A stretch of DNA of 63,716 bases, the filler included. It is 15 parts of 15 records of this genome, joined end to end, with 100 filler letters (N's around TTAATTAATTAA, not from the genome) between each part and the next. Parts side by side here need not be neighbours in the genome. Positions count along the whole stretch, not along the records: positions 34,548 to 38,549 come from SRR7504441_61941; 14 more parts are not named here. The stretch is one strand, 5' to 3'. The notes below the pieces were generated by a model, which saw only the letters and a list, made by a program, of their open reading frames with translations, did no database searches and was not told the origin of the DNA. The position numbers were made by a program, and so were the translations under genes. Every line of letters starts with the position of its first letter. The first letter of the stretch is position 1. Below are positions 22,297-38,649 of this stretch, piece after piece.

Positions 22297-25200
22297 ATGA
22301 CCGACTCGTTGTTCCGGCTGCAGCATGCCGAGGTGGACCTGCACAAGGTGGACCTGCCGAACGAGCGGCTGGCGGTGACCCCGGACTGTGCCGTGCCGCT
22401 CACCGGTGACAGGCGGTGGCCTCGCTTCACGTGGTGCCGACGAAGCGGTGCACCGAGATTCGGCTGCACACGGGCGAGGGCGGCAGCAAGGGCGGGCCTG
22501 GCTGGCACATTGATAGAGTTGTGGTGGGGGGCACTGTCCTGGCCGGCAAGCAGTATGAGTTCACCAAACAACGATCCAGCTGGGGCACCGTACCATTCTC
22601 CGCTGACTCTGACGAAGCAGCAGTCGGGCGCTTTGAGAAGGAGATCAGCGCCAGTGACCAGGGCAACCTCAAAATTGAGCTGCCGGAGAGCGTCTGGCAC
22701 ATTGAGCAGCAGCCCGAGGGTTCAGAATCTGACCAGGTGTGGCCTCGCACCCGGAGCGTGATGTGCGCTGAGCGTCTCCTTTGGTTCTCAGGCGACATAC
22801 AAGCCATTTTCAATCGAAATAAGCTACAGCGTGCAATGCCCTGCACCTGGTGTCAACTTCAACCACACACCGGGCCGTGAACGTGAGATTAGTCTAGCGC
22901 AGTGCCCTCTGCGCCTGTTGATGCGGCGCTGGACAGATATGTGGATCGAGTTTGCACCAGCCACAGCTCGTCAGTGGCTACCATGCCTAGACGTACCCAA
23001 AGAGGTGTGACTGCCACTGCTCCGCATCACCTGAACTGCCCAACTCGTGCAGACATTTACACTGGACCTGCATATTCGAGTTCCGTCGGGCCTAGTTGCT
23101 GTAGCCTGTGGCGATTTCGAGGACCAGGCCCGAGATCTTCACCATTCGCAGACAATCTTCCATTACCATCTCAGGTCACCAGCACCAGCAATGAGCATGA
23201 TCTTTGCTATCGGCCCATTCGAAATCATCCCTGACAAGTTCTCCGCACGCATCACATACTTTGGCCTGCCGGGCACCCGGACTTCGGATCTAAGCATCTC
23301 AGTGGAGCAGGTCTTCCAGATGATGGCTTGCTCTGAGGAATATCTTGGGGTACGATACCCTCACGAGCACTACAAGATAGTTTTCCTGCCGTTGGAGACG
23401 CAGGACGAATCAGTTCGGTATCTGAGGGGCTTTGGAGCGGGCATTGCCGTACTTCCGGCATCATTACAGCATGGAAGTGACAGTGAGTTTCTCTCCCTTC
23501 CTATGATTTTAGCCTGGGCAAACTTCTTCAGGGCTCTGCCTTAAATCTGCCCCTTTTGTCCTCCCTGCCATTTGTACCCCAAGACTACCCCCAACATATC
23601 TTGGAATTATATGGCTGTAATGCTGCTTTGTGTACAGATATTGACCAAACTATCAATACTCGCAGTGTGCTGGCACTTGCTTTCGCATTTTCATGGGTTT
23701 GTTCCTCTGTAACAATCAAGCGCTGGAAAGATCTGTGGGTCCTTACGGGACTTGCTGGATTCTTGCAGGAGATGTACCTTAGGGCCACCCTCGGGCACAA
23801 CTGCCATCTGCACCGAATGCACAAAACCCGACTTTGGGTACGCCAGCACGACTCCAACGCCATCCCGCTTACTAGTGAAGGTAAGGGCGATGAATTTTCA
23901 CATCCTTCTGAGCTCTTCAATCAAGTGGCATTCGCAAAAGCAGGTCTTGTGTTTTACATGCTTGAGCGAAGAGCTGGACCGTCGCAGTTTCAGAGCTTTG
24001 CACAGGCATTCTTATCAGACAAGAAGCGGGACAGTTTAAAAACGGATAATGTGATTAAAATGTTCAAAAAGGCAGTTGGTAGTGAGAGCCATGCCAACAG
24101 CATTGAGACCTTCTTTGATCTGTGGGTCTTTGGAGGTGGAAGCCCTACTTACCGTGTTGGCTTCACTTTCAACAAGAGCACATTCCTGATTGATATAGCA
24201 CTGGAACAGCATTCCAAACTGTGGTCTCCTCCGTTCGAGAAGCTCGAGGAGGACCCTAGCTTGAAGATACGCGTTCATGAAGAAGCTGGAGTTTATGATC
24301 ATGTGGTACCAATACCGGTGAAGACGCAAGCAGATGCAATTAAACCAATCAGCGTAGCATGTCACTCTCGTAAGAAAAGTGCCAGGCGCCAGCGAATGGA
24401 AAAGAGTGGAGAACGAGCAATAGTTGATGAGGGTGAGCCCCCTATCAATTGGCTTCGAGTGGATCCTGAAATGGAATGGATATGTGAGGTTGATTTTGTC
24501 CAGCCGTTACGAATGTGGGTAGAACAGCTACAGAAGGATGAGGATGTTACTGCACAAATAGAGGCCGCACGAAACATATGGCACTTGCAACCAGATGCAG
24601 CGATTCCCGTGCTTGCTAGTACCCTGGAAAACGAGAAATTGTTCTATGTAGTCAGAGCTGAAGCAGCTTTATCTTTGGGGAAGATTCCAACGGACAAGTC
24701 TGATGCCGAAGGGCTTCACGTTTTGATCCGATATTTCAAAAAGAAGTTCTACAGCCCCAATACAGGCCAGCCTAAACCCAACGATTTTACAAATCTGATA
24801 GATTACAACGTGAAAAAGGCGATGGTGACTGCTGTTGGTCTTGCATGCGACACTTTTGGAGCCTCCGCCCGTTTGGCAATTCAATTCTTGTTCGAATTGA
24901 TCGACCAAAATGACAACTCAGATAATGACTATGACGGAAGCCATTACCTGGTCATTTTGATCCGTGCCATTGGCAATCTTTGTCCTGAACGGCAAGAAGA
25001 TGCGGCTCGGATGGCCCATCAGATTCATTGCCACCTTAGGAAAGACACTCTGATCCCTAGTTATCAGCGAATCGTTTCAGCCGAGTGCTTGGAGGCTCTG
25101 TGTGATATGATGCTCAATAAGTTTGCGGGTACCAGCTCCCAAGTGTTCAAAGACTACATTGCTTCCAATTTCTATCCTCTAAAGCAGGCTGCTTGGCGTT

Positions 25201-25845
25201 CCTTGCTGCGATTAAGTCATCAAGACTCCTCACTGATTGGTTTCATTTTTGACCAGGCTGTTGTCACTACCCCACCAGACATTCAGTTGCTGGCATGGCT
25301 AGCTGGTGCAAATGCCGAGGTAAAGTTGCAGGACAATTTCCGGCACTCTGAAGAGGGTGACAGACGGATGCAAAAGTTGTGGAAAGTCATGACAGATCAC
25401 ATGTGTACTCCAATGACTAGGCTGTGGGCAATCTCATTGTACAACCAAATTCTGCAAGTGCACAGACCCATGTCTGTGGATCAGATTCAAAATCGCCTCA
25501 GCTTTCAAAGTAAAGATGCAGCCAAGAAGAACCCCCCAAAGCTAGAATTGAGCTTTGCGCGCAAAATAGAGATCAAAGCTCCCAGTTCGTATTCCATAAA
25601 AAAGCGCGAACTTGTGACTAGCCCCACCAAAGACGTACCTCCAGCAAAGAAGTCAAAACATTCACCTACTCCTTCCACCAATAGCATCGTCCGAAGCTCA
25701 AATGGTACAGGATCTGGCAGCAATCAGCACGTGCAGATGCAGATTGAACCAGTCTTCGTGCCGCGCCCCCTGTTGAAGGCGCGTGCAAAACGAATGATCT
25801 TGCTCAAGAGGCAAAAGGAGGTGTGGGGAGTTACTTTGAACGAGT
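22297..25845 (+). CDS. TAF2: Transcription initiation factor TFIID subunit 2, 3'-partial
   Basis: M1-aminopeptidase-like fold without HEXXH; GLVAVACGD, FAIGPFE, YLGVRYP, WLRVDPEMEW, EQLQKDEDVTAQIEAA, LFYVVRAEAA, PKPNDF, NDNSDNDYDGSHY and IPSYQRIV. Confidence 0.92.
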
Positions 25846-25945
25846 NNNNNNNNNNNNNNNNNNNNNNNNNNNNNNNNNNNNNNNNNNNNTTAATTAATTA
25901 ANNNNNNNNNNNNNNNNNNNNNNNNNNNNNNNNNNNNNNNNNNNN

Positions 25946-34351: not shown

Positions 34352-35298
34352 TAATTACTTGATAGTACTAAGTAATTGCCTTTGTTGGCGTTAGTCCGTT
34401 AGCTGTTCCATAAATATATGTGTAGCTAGGCCACCTCCTACTCTCGGNNNNNNNNNNNNNNNNNNNNNNNNNNNNNNNNNNNNNNNNNNNNTTAATTAAT
34501 TAANNNNNNNNNNNNNNNNNNNNNNNNNNNNNNNNNNNNNNNNNNNNACATGAGGTGATGCATCCGTGGACACACACGGATATTTGACATGATTGTACTG
34601 ACAATCATCAATTGATTGAAACTAACGCTACGCACCCATCAGTTCAACCAACGGCACTATTTAGTGGAAAAAAATCAACTGTAATAGTACTACGATTACA
34701 ATGTATGTTGAATTCCTTATATTTGAATCTAGACTGAATTACTCGCATGATAAATAATTTACTTTTTTAAGGGTTAACACACAATCGATGGGTGATGGGT
34801 TCACATACTACCTATTGTGTCACGCATATGTGCACTATGGTACACACTATAGCATGTCCTGTGGCATGCCTGCAGCATTGTACTACAAGTACACAACTAT
34901 CCCCACCCCAGTGCATGAAAACACCACACGGTGGCATGCGATACCACACGATGCGAGACCACATGTAGCCACGTATGCTGCAATGCATGTGCAGTGCATG
35001 TACAGTGCATGTACAGTGCGTGTGCACTGTGCTGTATCACTTGTGGCCGTGCTGCGGGTGGCATTCGACTCACTTGGACCACACGCAGTACCCACTAGTT
35101 ATTTATTTGTACAGTACCGTACTACATAGTGGTGGTGCTGTAGTAACAGATGAGTGCTGTACCAGTACTGACAAGTCACAATCAGTAGTACTGTACACCC
35201 TTCTTACTGCGCGTGTAAAAGGCTCCGACAGTAACTTTTCTATACAGAATGATCCGAGACCTTGCTGCTTCGACACGAGTTTGTCCTTGACATGCACA

Positions 35299-38200
35299 TC
35301 ACCGGCTGACTATGCGTTTCCGCTTCTGTCTGTCGCCGAGAGCAAGTTGTCGACTTACGCTCAATGGGGTTAGCCGACCCTCACCTACCTCTATCGGCGG
35401 GTTTGTCGGGATCTGCTTATAGATGTGTGAAAATCGCCCAGCCTCGCCCTCTTGAACTGCTGCCCGTCTCTGCGCCTGTCGCTCGGCACTCTCGACGAAT
35501 GCAGCACTCTTGAATCCGGCTGCATGTGCGCTTTCCAGAGTTCTATACTGTCTGCCGCACGGTGCGCGATACACCTTGAAGCCCTTAGCTGCTAAAAATG
35601 TATCCGCTACGTCCAACACTGACCAGCCTGGGGACTGGATGTCGTACAAATAACTTATGTCGCCCCCGCCCTTGAAGGCTGATACCACTATCTCCCCCTC
35701 TGCGACGTACCTAGCGACAAAGGACATGGTGGGCTTACGGCTGACGACCCATCGATCACTACCCTCGCGATAGGATCCGTAACGTGGGTGTGCAGTGACA
35801 CACTTGTACTCCCAGAACCCCTCTGTTCCGTCTAGCATTGTGCACGACATCCTTGTCCACAATTCCCCGCACGCCTCACTCAAGGCGGGGCCTACCCCTA
35901 CCCCTTGGCACTCCGGTAGCACGCACACGCGATGCTCTCGCCGGATGCGGCAGGAACTAGATTGAGATTGACATGCTACAGTTGAAGTAAACGCCACCAA
36001 CTCTTGCGTGCCCTCCATCCTGAGCACGTCAACTATAGCCGCCTTCTGTAAACCTCCGTCTGCAGCGTCATTCTTCAGGTAATGGTGCTCGCTGAACACA
36101 GACAACCACAGGTTGGCTGGATGCTTCCCACTGCCTGGGTAATCCATACATGTGCGCAGCTCCAAGCCTATCACAGGTATCTTGTATAAGTCGATTTTAA
36201 CGACCGCAGGCTGATGCTCGTTAGCAGTGGCTGAGTGCCAAATGGGTGATACCACCACTGACCCAGGCATCACCACCACGATGTCGGGTTGCAACGTGTT
36301 GACGACTCTATGACTACATGTTGCCACGAGTAGCTGGCTACCCCCATGCCCTGTACTCGCAATCAACACACCCAATGAGGAACACAACCGAGAAGCTGTG
36401 TCTGTGTCTAACAATGACGCAAACTCATCGATACACACTGTTTGACCTTGATACGACGATGCTATTGCGTTTGCTATTGCAGCTACGTGCTGCTTACCTA
36501 AGCTGTGCGTGCACTCGGAATACGCGCAGCCCACCACGTCATAACAGAACGTGTCCACAGCTACCCGGTCGGCTGGTAACCACGGTCGAGTGGGAGCTGC
36601 CTCCGAATACTGACCTTCTACTGCGGATAGTATGGTGCTCTTGCCACTCCCAGATGGCCCCACGATAGCAGCCACTGACCACGACCCACCTGAGCCCAAG
36701 AGCCCCCCTGGGATCTTGATATGGCGCATGCTGGTTACACGCCTAGTGCCCATACCTAAACCCATTGAGCTACATGCCACGTGCGACACCTCGCTCGTTT
36801 CGACGGTGCTTGACGCTGTCACGATGTAACTATCTGCGTGCTCTGGCTGCTCGATCACGCTGCCTGCGTTCAGCCACTTGAACTGTGCGCCTTGGTGAAG
36901 CTCCGTGCACTCATACGCTTGTAAGTATGTGATATCCAACTGAGGGCGTGGACAGCTCTCGCTCGGTCTGCGATACACCTGGCACCCTTCCCCCGACAGG
37001 GCTGCTACCCAATCCGGCTGCAAGTAGTTACACACCTTTGGGTCGTGTGTGGCAATCACTATGTTGTCCATGCACCTGTACTTTACCAATCGCTGAACCC
37101 CACGTGCTATATACTGCCGCACTCTATCCCCCACGTATGACCCGAAGTCATCTATGAAGCTGCCGGTGCTGACGCTACGTGCTAGCATGCACCTCTCCTT
37201 CTGACCGCTGCTCAGTGTACCGTACGATTGTAGCCAGGCAGGCACCGTATTCATGCCTACCTTGTTCAATGTGTTTATCACTGTTGGCAGCCTGGTCCTG
37301 TCCCCATCGACCAACACCTCCAATATACACTGGTCCGCGGGCCATGACACGTCCTCCACCAGCCTCCCTAGCCCCCCTGCCTGCAGCTGGCTCAACAGGG
37401 TCGTCTTGCCTGATGCTGTGCTGCCCACTATCAACCCTACACCCCATGTCACCCCAACCGTGTTGATGATCTGATCAGCAGCTGCTCGAGCGCTAATGAC
37501 GTGCCCCTCGGTACACATCCCCAGCACCTCGGCCGGATGAGCAGCTGTATGAGTGACATGTGCCCTACCCTCCGGAGCTGCTGGGTCTTCCTGCTTGTCC
37601 GTGAGGCCATGTGGACCCACTTCAGATTCGCATTGGAGCCACTCTCTTGCATTGGTCTGCTCAAACAGTGCGGTGGGCCCCGGCGGCGATAACTCTGCTA
37701 CGGTACACATCTCTAGCACCTCGCCCAGCTGTACAGCTGTGTGTGGAGCGCGAGCCCTGCCCTCTGGAACTGCTGGCTCTTCAAACTCATCCGTGAAACC
37801 GTACGGATCTGCTTCTGATTCATCCTGAGGGCTCCCGCTGACATCAGTCTGCTCGACCACTGCGGTAGGTTCCGGCAACGGCGCGCTCGGTGGCACTGAC
37901 AACTCGGCCTCTGGAGCCCCTGTGATACTCGGCGTAGCGACATGCACACCCTCAGCCTCTGCCCCCCCATACACACCCTCAGCCTCTGCCCCCTCCTCGG
38001 ATACGCCTCTCCTTTGACGAGCGCGCTGCTCCTTAGCCCACAGTCGAGCAGCCTCCCGCTGGGTGCTGCTCTCGCGGCGCTGTCTGGCTCGGCGCTGGTT
38101 GTCCGACTCTCCATTACGCCCCCCCCTGTCGCGGTCTCGAGCTGATCTGTCTCTCGTCTGCTGCTGTGCCTTGCGCCTGATCAACATCAGGGCTGCACGC

Positions 38201-38481
38201 TGTGAATGCTCAATCTGCCACTGCGCCAGCTCGCAGTTGAACTGCTCATCGCTATGACAGCGCTCCCTATTGGGCTTCCTCCCCAATGCTGCAGGTCGGG
38301 GTGGTATTGCCGGCAGCAGAGCGAGCGGAGCTGCTGCTACTGCTGTCTCCACCTCCCCGCCATGCACCTGCAGCAGCCGGCCTGTGCGCCCCATCGACCC
38401 TCCTGGCTGCACGGTGTGCGCCTCTGCCTGCTGCTGTGACGGGGCGTCTGCTGCTGCGAGAGGACGCTGGTGGGCGTACAT
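35299..38481 (-). CDS. Tandem ABC-type ATPase + GNAT acetyltransferase protein with a C-terminal MBD-like motif
   Basis: GSTASGKT/LSSGQ/FIDD/IATHD; GPSGSGKS/CIDEF/VATCS; HHYL...REHRVCVLPECQGVGVG...TAHP; PGWSV...VYRAPCGRQYRT; no transmembrane segments; intronless. Confidence 0.85.
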   Translation of the reverse strand: MYAHQRPLAAADAPSQQQAEAHTVQPGGSMGRTGRLLQVHGGEVETAVAAAPLALLPAIPPRPAALGRKPNRERCHSDEQFNCELAQWQIEHSQRAALMLIRRKAQQQTRDRSARDRDRGGRNGESDNQRRARQRRESSTQREAARLWAKEQRARQRRGVSEEGAEAEGVYGGAEAEGVHVATPSITGAPEAELSVPPSAPLPEPTAVVEQTDVSGSPQDESEADPYGFTDEFEEPAVPEGRARAPHTAVQLGEVLEMCTVAELSPPGPTALFEQTNAREWLQCESEVGPHGLTDKQEDPAAPEGRAHVTHTAAHPAEVLGMCTEGHVISARAAADQIINTVGVTWGVGLIVGSTASGKTTLLSQLQAGGLGRLVEDVSWPADQCILEVLVDGDRTRLPTVINTLNKVGMNTVPAWLQSYGTLSSGQKERCMLARSVSTGSFIDDFGSYVGDRVRQYIARGVQRLVKYRCMDNIVIATHDPKVCNYLQPDWVAALSGEGCQVYRRPSESCPRPQLDITYLQAYECTELHQGAQFKWLNAGSVIEQPEHADSYIVTASSTVETSEVSHVACSSMGLGMGTRRVTSMRHIKIPGGLLGSGGSWSVAAIVGPSGSGKSTILSAVEGQYSEAAPTRPWLPADRVAVDTFCYDVVGCAYSECTHSLGKQHVAAIANAIASSYQGQTVCIDEFASLLDTDTASRLCSSLGVLIASTGHGGSQLLVATCSHRVVNTLQPDIVVVMPGSVVVSPIWHSATANEHQPAVVKIDLYKIPVIGLELRTCMDYPGSGKHPANLWLSVFSEHHYLKNDAADGGLQKAAIVDVLRMEGTQELVAFTSTVACQSQSSSCRIRREHRVCVLPECQGVGVGPALSEACGELWTRMSCTMLDGTEGFWEYKCVTAHPRYGSYREGSDRWVVSRKPTMSFVARYVAEGEIVVSAFKGGGDISYLYDIQSPGWSVLDVADTFLAAKGFKVYRAPCGRQYRTLESAHAAGFKSAAFVESAERQAQRRAAVQEGEAGRFSHIYKQIPTNPPIEVGEGRLTPLSVSRQLALGDRQKRKRIVSR
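37510..37869 (-). repeat. In-frame internal duplication (period 192 nt) within the ATPase-GNAT ORF
   Basis: PTAVVEQT...PEGRARAPHTAVQLGEVLEMCT versus PTALFEQT...PEGRAHVTHTAAHPAEVLGMCT. Confidence 0.9.
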
Positions 38482-38649
38482 CTACTCTGGAATAGTTGTC
38501 CGCCCACCAATTTTTATGCCGTTGCGGCCTTGAAATAGTTGTCCGCCCANNNNNNNNNNNNNNNNNNNNNNNNNNNNNNNNNNNNNNNNNNNNTTAATTA
38601 ATTAANNNNNNNNNNNNNNNNNNNNNNNNNNNNNNNNNNNNNNNNNNNN

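Follow-up and report, generated by a model that had tools for sequence, protein, structure and literature searches.

Phage Mu Mom, an enzyme of GNAT fold whose regulator is Com, modifies N6 of adenine in DNA, and TmcA and NAT10 (Kre33) are RNA cytidine acetyltransferases that combine a P-loop ATPase with a GNAT domain. A different pairing, of an ABC ATPase with a GNAT, was predicted in a passage of Iyer et al. 2021 (PMC7824862) to give a DNA base an acyl modification that is itself uncharacterised. The passage restates the prediction of a 'GNAT coupled with an ABC ATPase' with Iyer et al. 2013 (NAR 41:7635) cited as the source, and names Tenacibaculum phage pT24, which is also among the phage matches found here. 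Gene product gp29 of Burkholderia phage phiE255, another member, is called a putative ABC transporter in a passage of PMC2920897 (2010), and the ABC-GNAT family is currently mislabelled as 'ABC transporter'. Here we describe an open reading frame (ORF) of 1060 aa at 35299..38481, minus strand, of a 63,716-nucleotide stretch of DNA (hereafter the window), whose product carries two ABC cassettes followed by one GNAT domain. What was known is an uncharacterised phage and prokaryote family; what is added is a eukaryote-type tandem variant. No dinoflagellate report of the family was found in the literature searched, with Iyer et al. 2013, a possible earlier mention, lying outside that search.

Residues 320-1060 were compared exhaustively with 1.84 billion protein cluster representatives using HMMER. 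At E<=1e-3 there were 1008 relatives, of which 404 reached E<=1e-10 and 10 reached E<=1e-30; the top match stood at 6e-73 and 37% identity, with homology stopping near residue 912-922. The exhaustive search was relied on because a word-based protein search with the core yielded only two relatives. The PHROGs family phrog_11143 ('unknown function', 357 positions) matched the window protein at 4.4e-52 in two stretches covering ABC and GNAT, and typical short relatives of 365 aa match it at 1e-74 to 1e-101. Hidden Markov models (HMMs) of the ABC and GNAT domains were built from 55 short relatives and recovered ABC, ABC and GNAT in the window protein at 2.2e-42, 2.6e-21 and 4.2e-25 respectively, far above chance. 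The first-pass annotation had proposed a eukaryotic, duplicated-ATPase version of a prokaryote and phage ABC-ATPase-acetyltransferase fusion, encoded by an intronless ORF alone on its contig; the HMMER search, phrog_11143, the domain HMMs and the names of family members all agree with this, and the ORF is intronless and the sole long gene of its 4002-base contig (34548-38549). Residue-level mapping also placed every motif that had been named where it had been reported. The features of the contig are as follows, with confidence in AlphaFold2 (AF2) models given as predicted local distance difference test (pLDDT) values.

37492..38481, minus strand: N-terminal region, residues 1-330, of low complexity, with an Arg-rich stretch and two 54-aa direct repeats
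36979..37455, minus strand: ABC cassette 1 (ABC1), residues 343-501, HMM match 2.2e-42, AF2 pLDDT 86-96
36697..36978, minus strand: inter-cassette linker, residues 502-595, partly an N-terminal beta sub-domain of ABC2
36268..36696, minus strand: ABC cassette 2 (ABC2), residues 596-738, Pfam ABC_tran 1.4e-9, HMM match 2.6e-21
35710..36117, minus strand: GNAT core, residues 789-924, HMM match 4.2e-25 (789-919), AF2 pLDDT 80-94
35434..35709, minus strand: lineage-specific insertion of about 95 residues (approximate bounds 920/925-1016), in a variable loop before the last GNAT strand
35407..35433, minus strand: terminal GNAT strand RFSHIYKQI, residues 1017-1025, at the family closing motif R-x-x-[YF]-S-H-E-[YF]-V-G
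35299..35406, minus strand: C-terminal tail, residues 1026-1060, and the stop codon, ending in basic RQKRKRIVSR
34548..35298, no strand assigned: downstream stretch of about 750 bases past the stop, of lower G+C and with no long conserved ORF

The window protein and its best 150 relatives comprised 81 of ABC-GNAT layout, 42 of ABC-ABC-GNAT layout, 11 tandem proteins with a split cassette match and 17 fragments or others. The duplication of the cassettes was missed by BLASTP of the protein against itself, and only the HMMs and a phylogeny reveal it. In a quick, unrooted FastTree phylogeny of 154 ABC domains (76 single-form, 39 ABC1 and 39 ABC2), one branch (support 92) gathered 39/39 ABC1, 39/39 ABC2 and 3 single-form domains. 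A pure ABC2 group contained 38/39 (support 88), and an ABC1 group contained 35/39 together with 2 single-form domains (support 84). On these sequences ABC1 and ABC2 look like products of one old internal duplication that took place in an ancestral tandem protein; the direction of the duplication is deduced, because the tree has no root.

The single-cassette form was found in 64 phage records, including Gordonia, Streptococcus, Aeromonas, Porphyromonas, Leptospira, Burkholderia and Tenacibaculum phages, in 42 loci from bacteria and a single archaeal genome, and on 19 IMG/VR contigs. Examples are phiE255 gp29, Tenacibaculum phage pT24 and Gordonia phage Axumite gp2. For the tandem form, 30 clusters were looked up. 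Members with a species name were all dinoflagellates, namely Cladocopium goreaui, Symbiodinium natans, Durusdinium trenchii, Polarella glacialis, Pelagodinium beii and Gymnodinium smaydae (three clusters). The remainder were two clusters of MMETSP transcripts, two clusters with EukProt transcripts that carry no species name, and otherwise unlabelled metagenome sequences, two of which (P0065 and P0090) bear IMG-style 'ABC-type transport' names; prokaryotic or viral tandem forms may therefore exist. The loci of the closest relatives (33-37% identity), recovered by a metagenome scan with a 7-sequence alignment, lie on G+C-rich, gene-dense contigs beside eukaryotic genes encoding a histone deacetylase, a Cns1/TTC4 wheel-domain protein, an AIG1 GTPase and a nucleotide-sugar transferase.

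With this in mind, we consider it very improbable that the contig is a bacterial or phage contaminant among eukaryotic contigs. It is short and bears one intronless gene, the contigs of the window are heterogeneous (G+C at third codon positions, GC3, of 0.48-0.85), and the tandem relatives P0065 and P0090 carry prokaryote-style names. However, a 330-residue disordered N-terminus with repeats and 750 non-coding bases are unlike the gene packing of phages or bacteria, the closest relatives sit among eukaryotic genes, and every species-named tandem member is a dinoflagellate. The prokaryote matches (42/42) measure no more than about 1100 nt, in ORFs of 129-519 aa. The IMG/VR matches (19/19), from patterns of the GNAT part only, are all <=927 nt, so that none covers two cassettes and no tandem form was seen among them.

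In a head-to-tail pair of ABC cassettes, one cassette supplies the Walker motifs of each ATP site and its partner supplies the signature, and the combination of one degenerate with one consensus site is a common ABC theme. ABC1 has a Walker A motif, GSTASGKT, at residue 353 (nt 37402-37425) and an LSGGQ-type signature, LSSGQ, at residue 423. Its Walker B motif, IDDF at residue 443, has Asp in place of the catalytic Glu, and from its sequence ABC1 probably binds ATP without hydrolysing it. ABC2 scores 39.1 bits against Pfam ABC_tran (cut-off 25) and has Walker A GPSGSGKST at residue 608 (nt 36634-36660) and Walker B IDEF at residue 684 with the catalytic Glu present. The signature of ABC2, already noted as degenerate on first inspection, is HSLGK where the family has LSxGE, and the window protein is the sole row of 43 with Lys at the Glu/Gln position. 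Moreover, its ABC2 has a His adjoining the H-switch column.

The same asymmetry runs through the 43 tandem proteins. At Walker B, ABC1 has D-D in 27, D-N in 5 and D-E in 9, and ABC2 has D-E in 40; the Walker A Lys is found in 37/43 ABC1 and 43/43 ABC2 cassettes. The signature follows LSxG[EQ] in 42/43 for ABC1 and LSxGE/Q in 30/43 for ABC2, and the H-switch His is conserved in ABC2 (36/43) and not in ABC1. Because ABC sites combine motifs of both cassettes, the conserved competent site is formed by the Walker motifs of ABC2 and the signature of ABC1. This composite site is intact in the window protein, and the reciprocal site is degenerate on both sides, with D-D in Walker B of ABC1 and HSLGK as the signature of ABC2.

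The GNAT domain retains all of the family invariants. Its motifs are HHYL at residue 799, REHRV at 848 and TAHPRYG at 896. Across 122 aligned family members H800, Y801, R851, P856, Q859 and G860 (window numbering) are invariant, and F796, R848, G862, G864, H898, P899 and W911 are kept in >=90%. QGVGVG at 859-864 fits GNAT motif A (Q/R-x-x-G-x-G/A), which binds the pyrophosphate of CoA. FSHIY (1017-1021) aligns to the family closing motif [YF]SHE[YF]. In a second AF2 model (residues 745-1060) the GNAT core has pLDDT 80-94 and the closing strand is modelled at 275-279, its 10-residue block averaging pLDDT 87, with solved GNATs aligning out to model residues 281-290. Pfam Acetyltransf_7 matched the window protein weakly (E=0.0063, 17.3 bits, cut-off 27), and short-form relatives pass the Pfam cut-offs. 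On the model the GNAT fold is certain; the fold does not settle the class of substrate.

Set beside phrog_11143 and the system of Iyer et al., the window protein shares homology over ABC and GNAT and the invariants HHY, REHR, QGxGxG, AHP, W and closing [YF]SHE[YF], and no Pfam membrane domain was found in it or in four short forms. It differs in having two ABC cassettes and one GNAT per chain with one ATP site degenerate, in its long disordered N-terminus and loop insertion of about 95 residues, in its eukaryotic setting, and in that no ParB-like or partner domain was detected in it.

Our favoured reading, in which trust and doubt are about equally matched, is that the ORF encodes a eukaryotic tandem-cassette member of the ABC-ATPase and GNAT family, known in its single-cassette form as the phage family phrog_11143, and that the ABC pair would clamp nucleic acid, probably DNA, and the GNAT would acylate a base. 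The two cassettes would close head-to-tail within one chain, as in soluble ABC proteins of the ABCE1, ABC-F and UvrA types. Binding and hydrolysis of ATP at the single competent site would drive clamping or scanning of nucleic acid, most likely DNA, and the GNAT would move an acyl group from acyl-CoA onto the exocyclic amino group of a base. The gene itself would descend from a phage or bacterial DNA-modification module.

Evidence for function from gene context comes exclusively from prokaryotic and phage loci of the single-cassette form. A gene with a ParB-like nuclease domain abuts ABC-GNAT upstream in two Gordonia phages, Jace (gp85-gp86) and Axumite (gp1-gp2, next to the terminase). Among the prokaryotic loci, Pfam identified ParB_N in 7/37 upstream neighbours and the Mu Com zinc ribbon in 5/37; downstream neighbours included Formyl_trans_N in 6/35 and further GNATs in 3/35. 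A small domain of about 40 residues recurs beside the gene, either as the C-terminus of the ParB-like protein or as a free ORF of 42-59 aa, with a pattern of roughly [YF]-G-[VIL]-[IV]-[IV]-x-C-x-x-E-x-E-Q ... G-[YL]-x-[CV]-[KR]. An HMM of 21 examples found it within 700 nt upstream in 39/42 prokaryotic loci, and it is probably an obligatory partner of the single-cassette ABC-GNAT in prokaryotes. It corresponds to the hypothetical protein gp28 of phiE255 and to an ORF of a Porphyromonas phage annotated 'acr candidate'. The sites of this domain and of a Com-like ORF are:

L055-L095: partner domain, upstream
L096:5840-6004: partner domain
L097:3876-4004: partner domain
L001:4486-5034: partner domain
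L002:1-606: partner domain
L096:5563-5868, plus strand: phiE255 Com-like ORF, between gp27 and gp28, with a Mu Com-type zinc ribbon (…IRCGHCRRKLATGRYIELSIKCPRCGVINHL…)

The order of genes in phiE255 is tail fibre, tail-fibre assembly, the unannotated Com-like ORF, gp28, gp29 (ABC-GNAT) and gp30 (formyltransferase); in Mu, com-mom come after the tail-fibre genes and gin. The phiE255 Com-like ORF is closely similar to that of a prophage locus (L071), and the Com-like ORF of a related prophage matches Mu Com at E=8e-6. gp28 was also considered as a candidate Com and rejected: it does not align to Mu Com, it is the small partner domain, and the Com-like ORF is separate. Thus the window family is like Mom in its GNAT superfamily membership and in that the Mu-like single-cassette gene follows a Com-like gene, placed as in com-mom. 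It is unlike Mom in that Mom has no ATPase and shows no detectable sequence relation to the family. What ties the family to Mom is gene position alone; homology to Mom is not supported, and the GNAT is not of the Mom family.

We infer a DNA-modifying role, as a reasonable one, from the ParB-like genes that precede the single-cassette form, from the Com-like genes that do so in Mu-like elements, and from the prediction in the cited passage of Iyer et al. 2021. The function in eukaryotes is likewise one that we infer. The pairing of ParB with ABC-GNAT has a precedent, because experiments described in a passage of PMC13229309 (PNAS, 2026) show that an enzyme modifying DNA bases after replication is activated by ParB-like proteins of phages. 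The proposal of a eukaryotic enzyme that acylates DNA or chromatin therefore stands in part: membership of a duplicated-ATPase family holds, and a DNA role is reasonable from gene context and from PMC7824862 as far as that passage goes, while the chromatin reader that had been attached to it is unsupported.

Side by side with the ABC-GNAT gene, three further kinds of gene were seen. In Mu-like and Porphyromonas phages a Formyl_trans_N gene overlaps or closely abuts its 3′ end (L096:7119-7733; L097:5131-5604). The next genes downstream are annotated as an aspartate decarboxylase in Jace (gp87, L001:6140-6565) and as a tRNA-methyltransferase in Axumite (gp3, L002:1805-2452). The formyltransferase could further process an acyl adduct or could reflect a link to tRNA, and Jace gp87 and Axumite gp3 may supply or tailor the transferred group.

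Structural comparisons bear on the choice of substrate. The core was modelled with AF2 from the 43-sequence alignment (mean pLDDT 75, predicted TM-score 0.78); strands were modelled in the inter-cassette linker at model residues 195-201, 233-242 and 262-271, with mixed pLDDT. The top Foldseek matches in the PDB were ABCE1/RLI, PoxtA, EttA, ABCF1, DppD, UvrA and the A2 component of the methyl-coenzyme M reductase activation complex. The twin-ABC matches covered about 510-580 aligned columns at E 1.8e-9 to 1e-5, with identities of 10-17% and TM-scores of 0.16-0.35 on the query. An unnamed chain of the human small-subunit processome entry 7mq8 stood at rank 42 (810 columns, TM 0.16). ABCE1/RLI, the ABC-F proteins (EttA, ABCF1, PoxtA) and UvrA are like the window protein in having two cassettes per chain and no membrane domain. 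However, they lack a GNAT, and the window protein lacks the iron-sulphur domain, the P-site tRNA-interaction motif and the UvrA zinc modules. NCBIfam gave only sub-threshold matches to families of ABC and other P-loop NTPases, all of them far short of the curated cut-offs, and Pfam had no specific match apart from ABC_tran and the weak Acetyltransf_7.

For the GNAT model, VIA-align against 48,161 PDB representatives gave Naa50 as the best match (Z 12.6, root-mean-square deviation 3.2, 141 aligned). In total 202 chains were found at Z>=8, in a flat list of generic GNATs that falls only to Z 10.5 at rank 50. Foldseek returned IAA acetyltransferase, the AtaT/TacT toxins and the CurA GNAT, with E from 4e-4. 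In BFVD the best match was a 366-aa Leptospira phage protein, and no entry named Mom was among the best 50.

These matches raise the alternative of a target in RNA or translation, in which the twin-ABC unit would dock on the ribosome or tRNA and the GNAT would acetylate a base of tRNA or rRNA, a protein of the ribosome or an aminoacyl-tRNA, in the manner of TmcA/NAT10 with an ABC motor replacing the helicase. We hold this to be unlikely, if deserving of attention. The best matches of the core are ABCE1/RLI and the ABC-F ribosome factors, the GNAT matches include RimI and the tRNA-acetylating toxins AtaT/TacT, Formyl_trans_N lies downstream in 6/35 single-cassette loci, and the gene annotated as a tRNA-methyltransferase adjoins ABC-GNAT in Axumite. 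However, the TM-scores of the twin-ABC matches are low and reflect a shared layout, the DNA enzyme UvrA is listed as well, and the list of GNAT structures is flat and generic. The ParB-like partners and a Com-like regulator placed as in Mu com-mom fit DNA better. The likeness to TmcA/NAT10 is one of logic only, in that an NTPase is coupled to an acetyl-CoA-dependent GNAT acting on a nucleic-acid base. The ATPase there is of helicase type, in contrast to the ABC cassette pair of the window protein, and the Pfam and NCBIfam listings held no match to the TmcA/NAT10 family, with neither its helicase nor its tRNA-binding part found.

Another alternative is that the protein acetylates nuclear or chromatin proteins, such as histone-like proteins or those of the DVNP type of dinoflagellates, with the ABC pair serving as a clamp or assembly switch gated by ATP. 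Among solved GNATs, acetyltransferases of protein N-termini and of lysine come closest, the WWE, UBA-like and Strawberry-notch helicase fusions of its relatives are typical of chromatin and ubiquitin signalling, and the ends of the protein are basic and resemble a nuclear localisation signal (NLS). Nevertheless we consider this distinctly improbable. No histone or chromatin reader domain was detected with Pfam, the prokaryotic ancestors have no chromatin and their conserved partners are ParB-like, and likeness in GNAT fold does not reveal the substrate. The basic, NLS-like N-terminus described in the first-pass annotation is indeed Arg-rich and of low complexity; as a nuclear signal, it was counted together with the C-terminus as a point for protein acetylation.

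Several observations weigh against a DNA base as the target of the tandem protein. No experimental study of any ABC-GNAT member was found in the literature searched. A profile of 122 family sequences compared with Mu Mom by hhalign gave a probability of 0.07 (E=0.71), and Com signals only tight control of a gene, not what is modified. All of the context data come from the prokaryotic single-cassette form, and the window contig bears this gene alone. Moreover, a search for the partner domain at E<=10, covering all six frames of the window contig and the best 150 relatives, matched neither the contig nor 149/150 of the relatives; the sole match was P0082, an ABC-GNAT protein with the domain fused at its N-terminus. 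As the contig has a single gene, a partner encoded elsewhere may exist. Among neighbours, the formyltransferase (6/35 downstream) and the 'tRNA-methyltransferase' could point to tRNA. The nearest twin-ABC structures by Foldseek are ribosome factors, and the nearest solved GNATs, in a flat list, are protein N-terminal acetyltransferases, RimI and toxins that acetylate aminoacyl-tRNA. Lastly, ATPase activity may be weakened in the window protein, because the ABC2 signature and the register of the H-switch depart from the family.

Judging by their sequences, the eukaryotic proteins appear to have lost any detectable ParB-type partner and to have gained WWE, UBA-like and Strawberry-notch helicase modules. 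The closest clusters have a WWE domain at the N-terminus, a 2734-aa protein of Pelagodinium beii has a Strawberry-notch-type helicase (AAA_34, Helicase_C_4, SBNO) and a 1559-aa tandem relative has a UBA-like domain. These extra modules were located among tandem relatives as WWE (P0005, P0006, L004:6914-9571), Strawberry-notch-type helicase (P0027) and UBA-like domain (P0050).

The insertion before the last GNAT strand had been read as resembling a methyl-CpG-binding domain (MBD), which would recognise methylated CpG and so guide the acylation of DNA or chromatin to the vicinity of methylated sites. Residues from about 920 to 1016 are placed in the variable loop because the model and the alignment put the closing strand at 1017-1021. 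This loop has 15-60 residues in other members of the family, and the insertion is missing from the six closest relatives. It contains the string PGWSV...VYRAPCGRQYRTLE, with PGWSV at residue 951 and VYRAPCG at 970, so spaced that GW-x17-VY-x2-P-x-G-x2-YRT spans residues 952-982. The MBD family (Pfam PF01429) has the pattern GW ... Y-x-x-P-x-G-x-x-[FY]-R-[ST], a fold of a three- or four-stranded sheet with a helix, and a beta hairpin or strands after the GW. The likeness of the window protein to MBD is confined to the short string at 952-982, and at the position of the Arg-rich first strand of MBD it has SVLDVADTFLAAKG.

Searches for a relationship beyond this string gave nothing. No Pfam family matched residues 914-1060 at E<=10, and no MBD was among the 26 families listed for the whole protein. 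A phmmer search of residues 925-1016 against all PDB sequences found no MBD at E<=10, its lone match being a hydroxylase at E=0.44. The word-based search, which covered proteins of 583-1855 aa, found no homologue of the C-terminal segment at E<=0.1, and the ESM Atlas held no usable match for the insertion. AF2 modelled the insertion at low confidence (pLDDT 36-63), with a helix at 211-221 straight after the GW and no strands at 192-237 (model numbering), that is, a helix where MBD has its hairpin. Therefore, although the string resembles the MBD pattern, the segment is a hypervariable-loop insertion absent from the closest relatives, and recruitment to methylated CpG by this segment is scarcely credible. 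The MBD-like string is part of a lineage-specific loop insertion and an MBD reading of it is unsupported, the low-confidence model being no proof against it. Fold and profile checks of each domain thus recovered ABC and GNAT and did not recover MBD, so the chromatin reader lacks support from Pfam, PDB sequences, homologues and structure alike.

The chromatin and DNA chemistry of dinoflagellates and marine protists is already unusual. Should the family prove to acylate DNA bases, dinoflagellates and other marine protists would possess, in the tandem form, a pathway of DNA modification that has gone unrecognised. More tentatively, and with doubt clearly outweighing belief, we suggest that in these organisms a phage-derived, ATP-gated acyltransferase writes an unknown acyl mark (acetyl, glycyl or similar) on nuclear DNA bases, and that the add-ons, namely WWE, the Strawberry-notch helicase and the loop insertion of the window protein, steer the enzyme. 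If true, this would be a new eukaryotic DNA modification beside 5-methylcytosine, N6-methyladenine, 5-hydroxymethyluracil and base J, and a clear case of a phage counter-restriction enzyme adopted by eukaryotes. The design rules of such an enzyme would be one competent ATP site, a fixed set of invariant GNAT residues and, in prokaryotes, a small partner domain that is obligatory. If RNA or protein turns out to be the substrate, the family is still a large uncharacterised enzyme class, with 1008 cluster representatives at E<=1e-3.

The 54-aa direct repeats of the disordered N-terminal region, at residues 207-260 and 271-324 (37702-37863 and 37510-37671, minus strand), are 54% identical (E=2e-18) and sit just ahead of ABC1. 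No homologues of residues 1-330 were found, and homology in the HMMER search begins at about residue 332. Basic K/R-rich tails like that of the window protein also terminate its close relatives. A stop codon stands immediately 5′ of the ATG of the ORF, and tblastn found no second copy of the gene in the window.

In comparisons with sequencing runs, the fraction of sampled words present reached 0.40 in the best-matching run. A 232-nt contig from a marine metatranscriptome run covers 38261-38485 at >=99%, corresponding to the first 220 nt of the ORF. The match runs out 4 nt ahead of the ATG and leaves 7 letters unmatched, a length too short to tell a spliced leader from noise. This one RNA contig is a weak hint of transcription of the gene and does not justify a claim about expression or habitat.

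The window consists of about 16 short contigs (3-5 kb each) chained by spacers of 44 N, TTAATTAATTAA and 44 N. Its other contigs encode TAF2 (23556-25901), a sedolisin, GH32, GH2 and an aldo-keto reductase. GC3 of the long ORFs ranges from 0.48 to 0.85 across the contigs, and is 0.61 in the ABC-GNAT ORF. Given this wide spread, the window may hold a mixture of organisms, and the contig cannot be linked to the others by codon use or GC3 because their ORFs span that range. The nearest named relatives of the TAF2 encoded in the window are from land plants, at about 30% identity.

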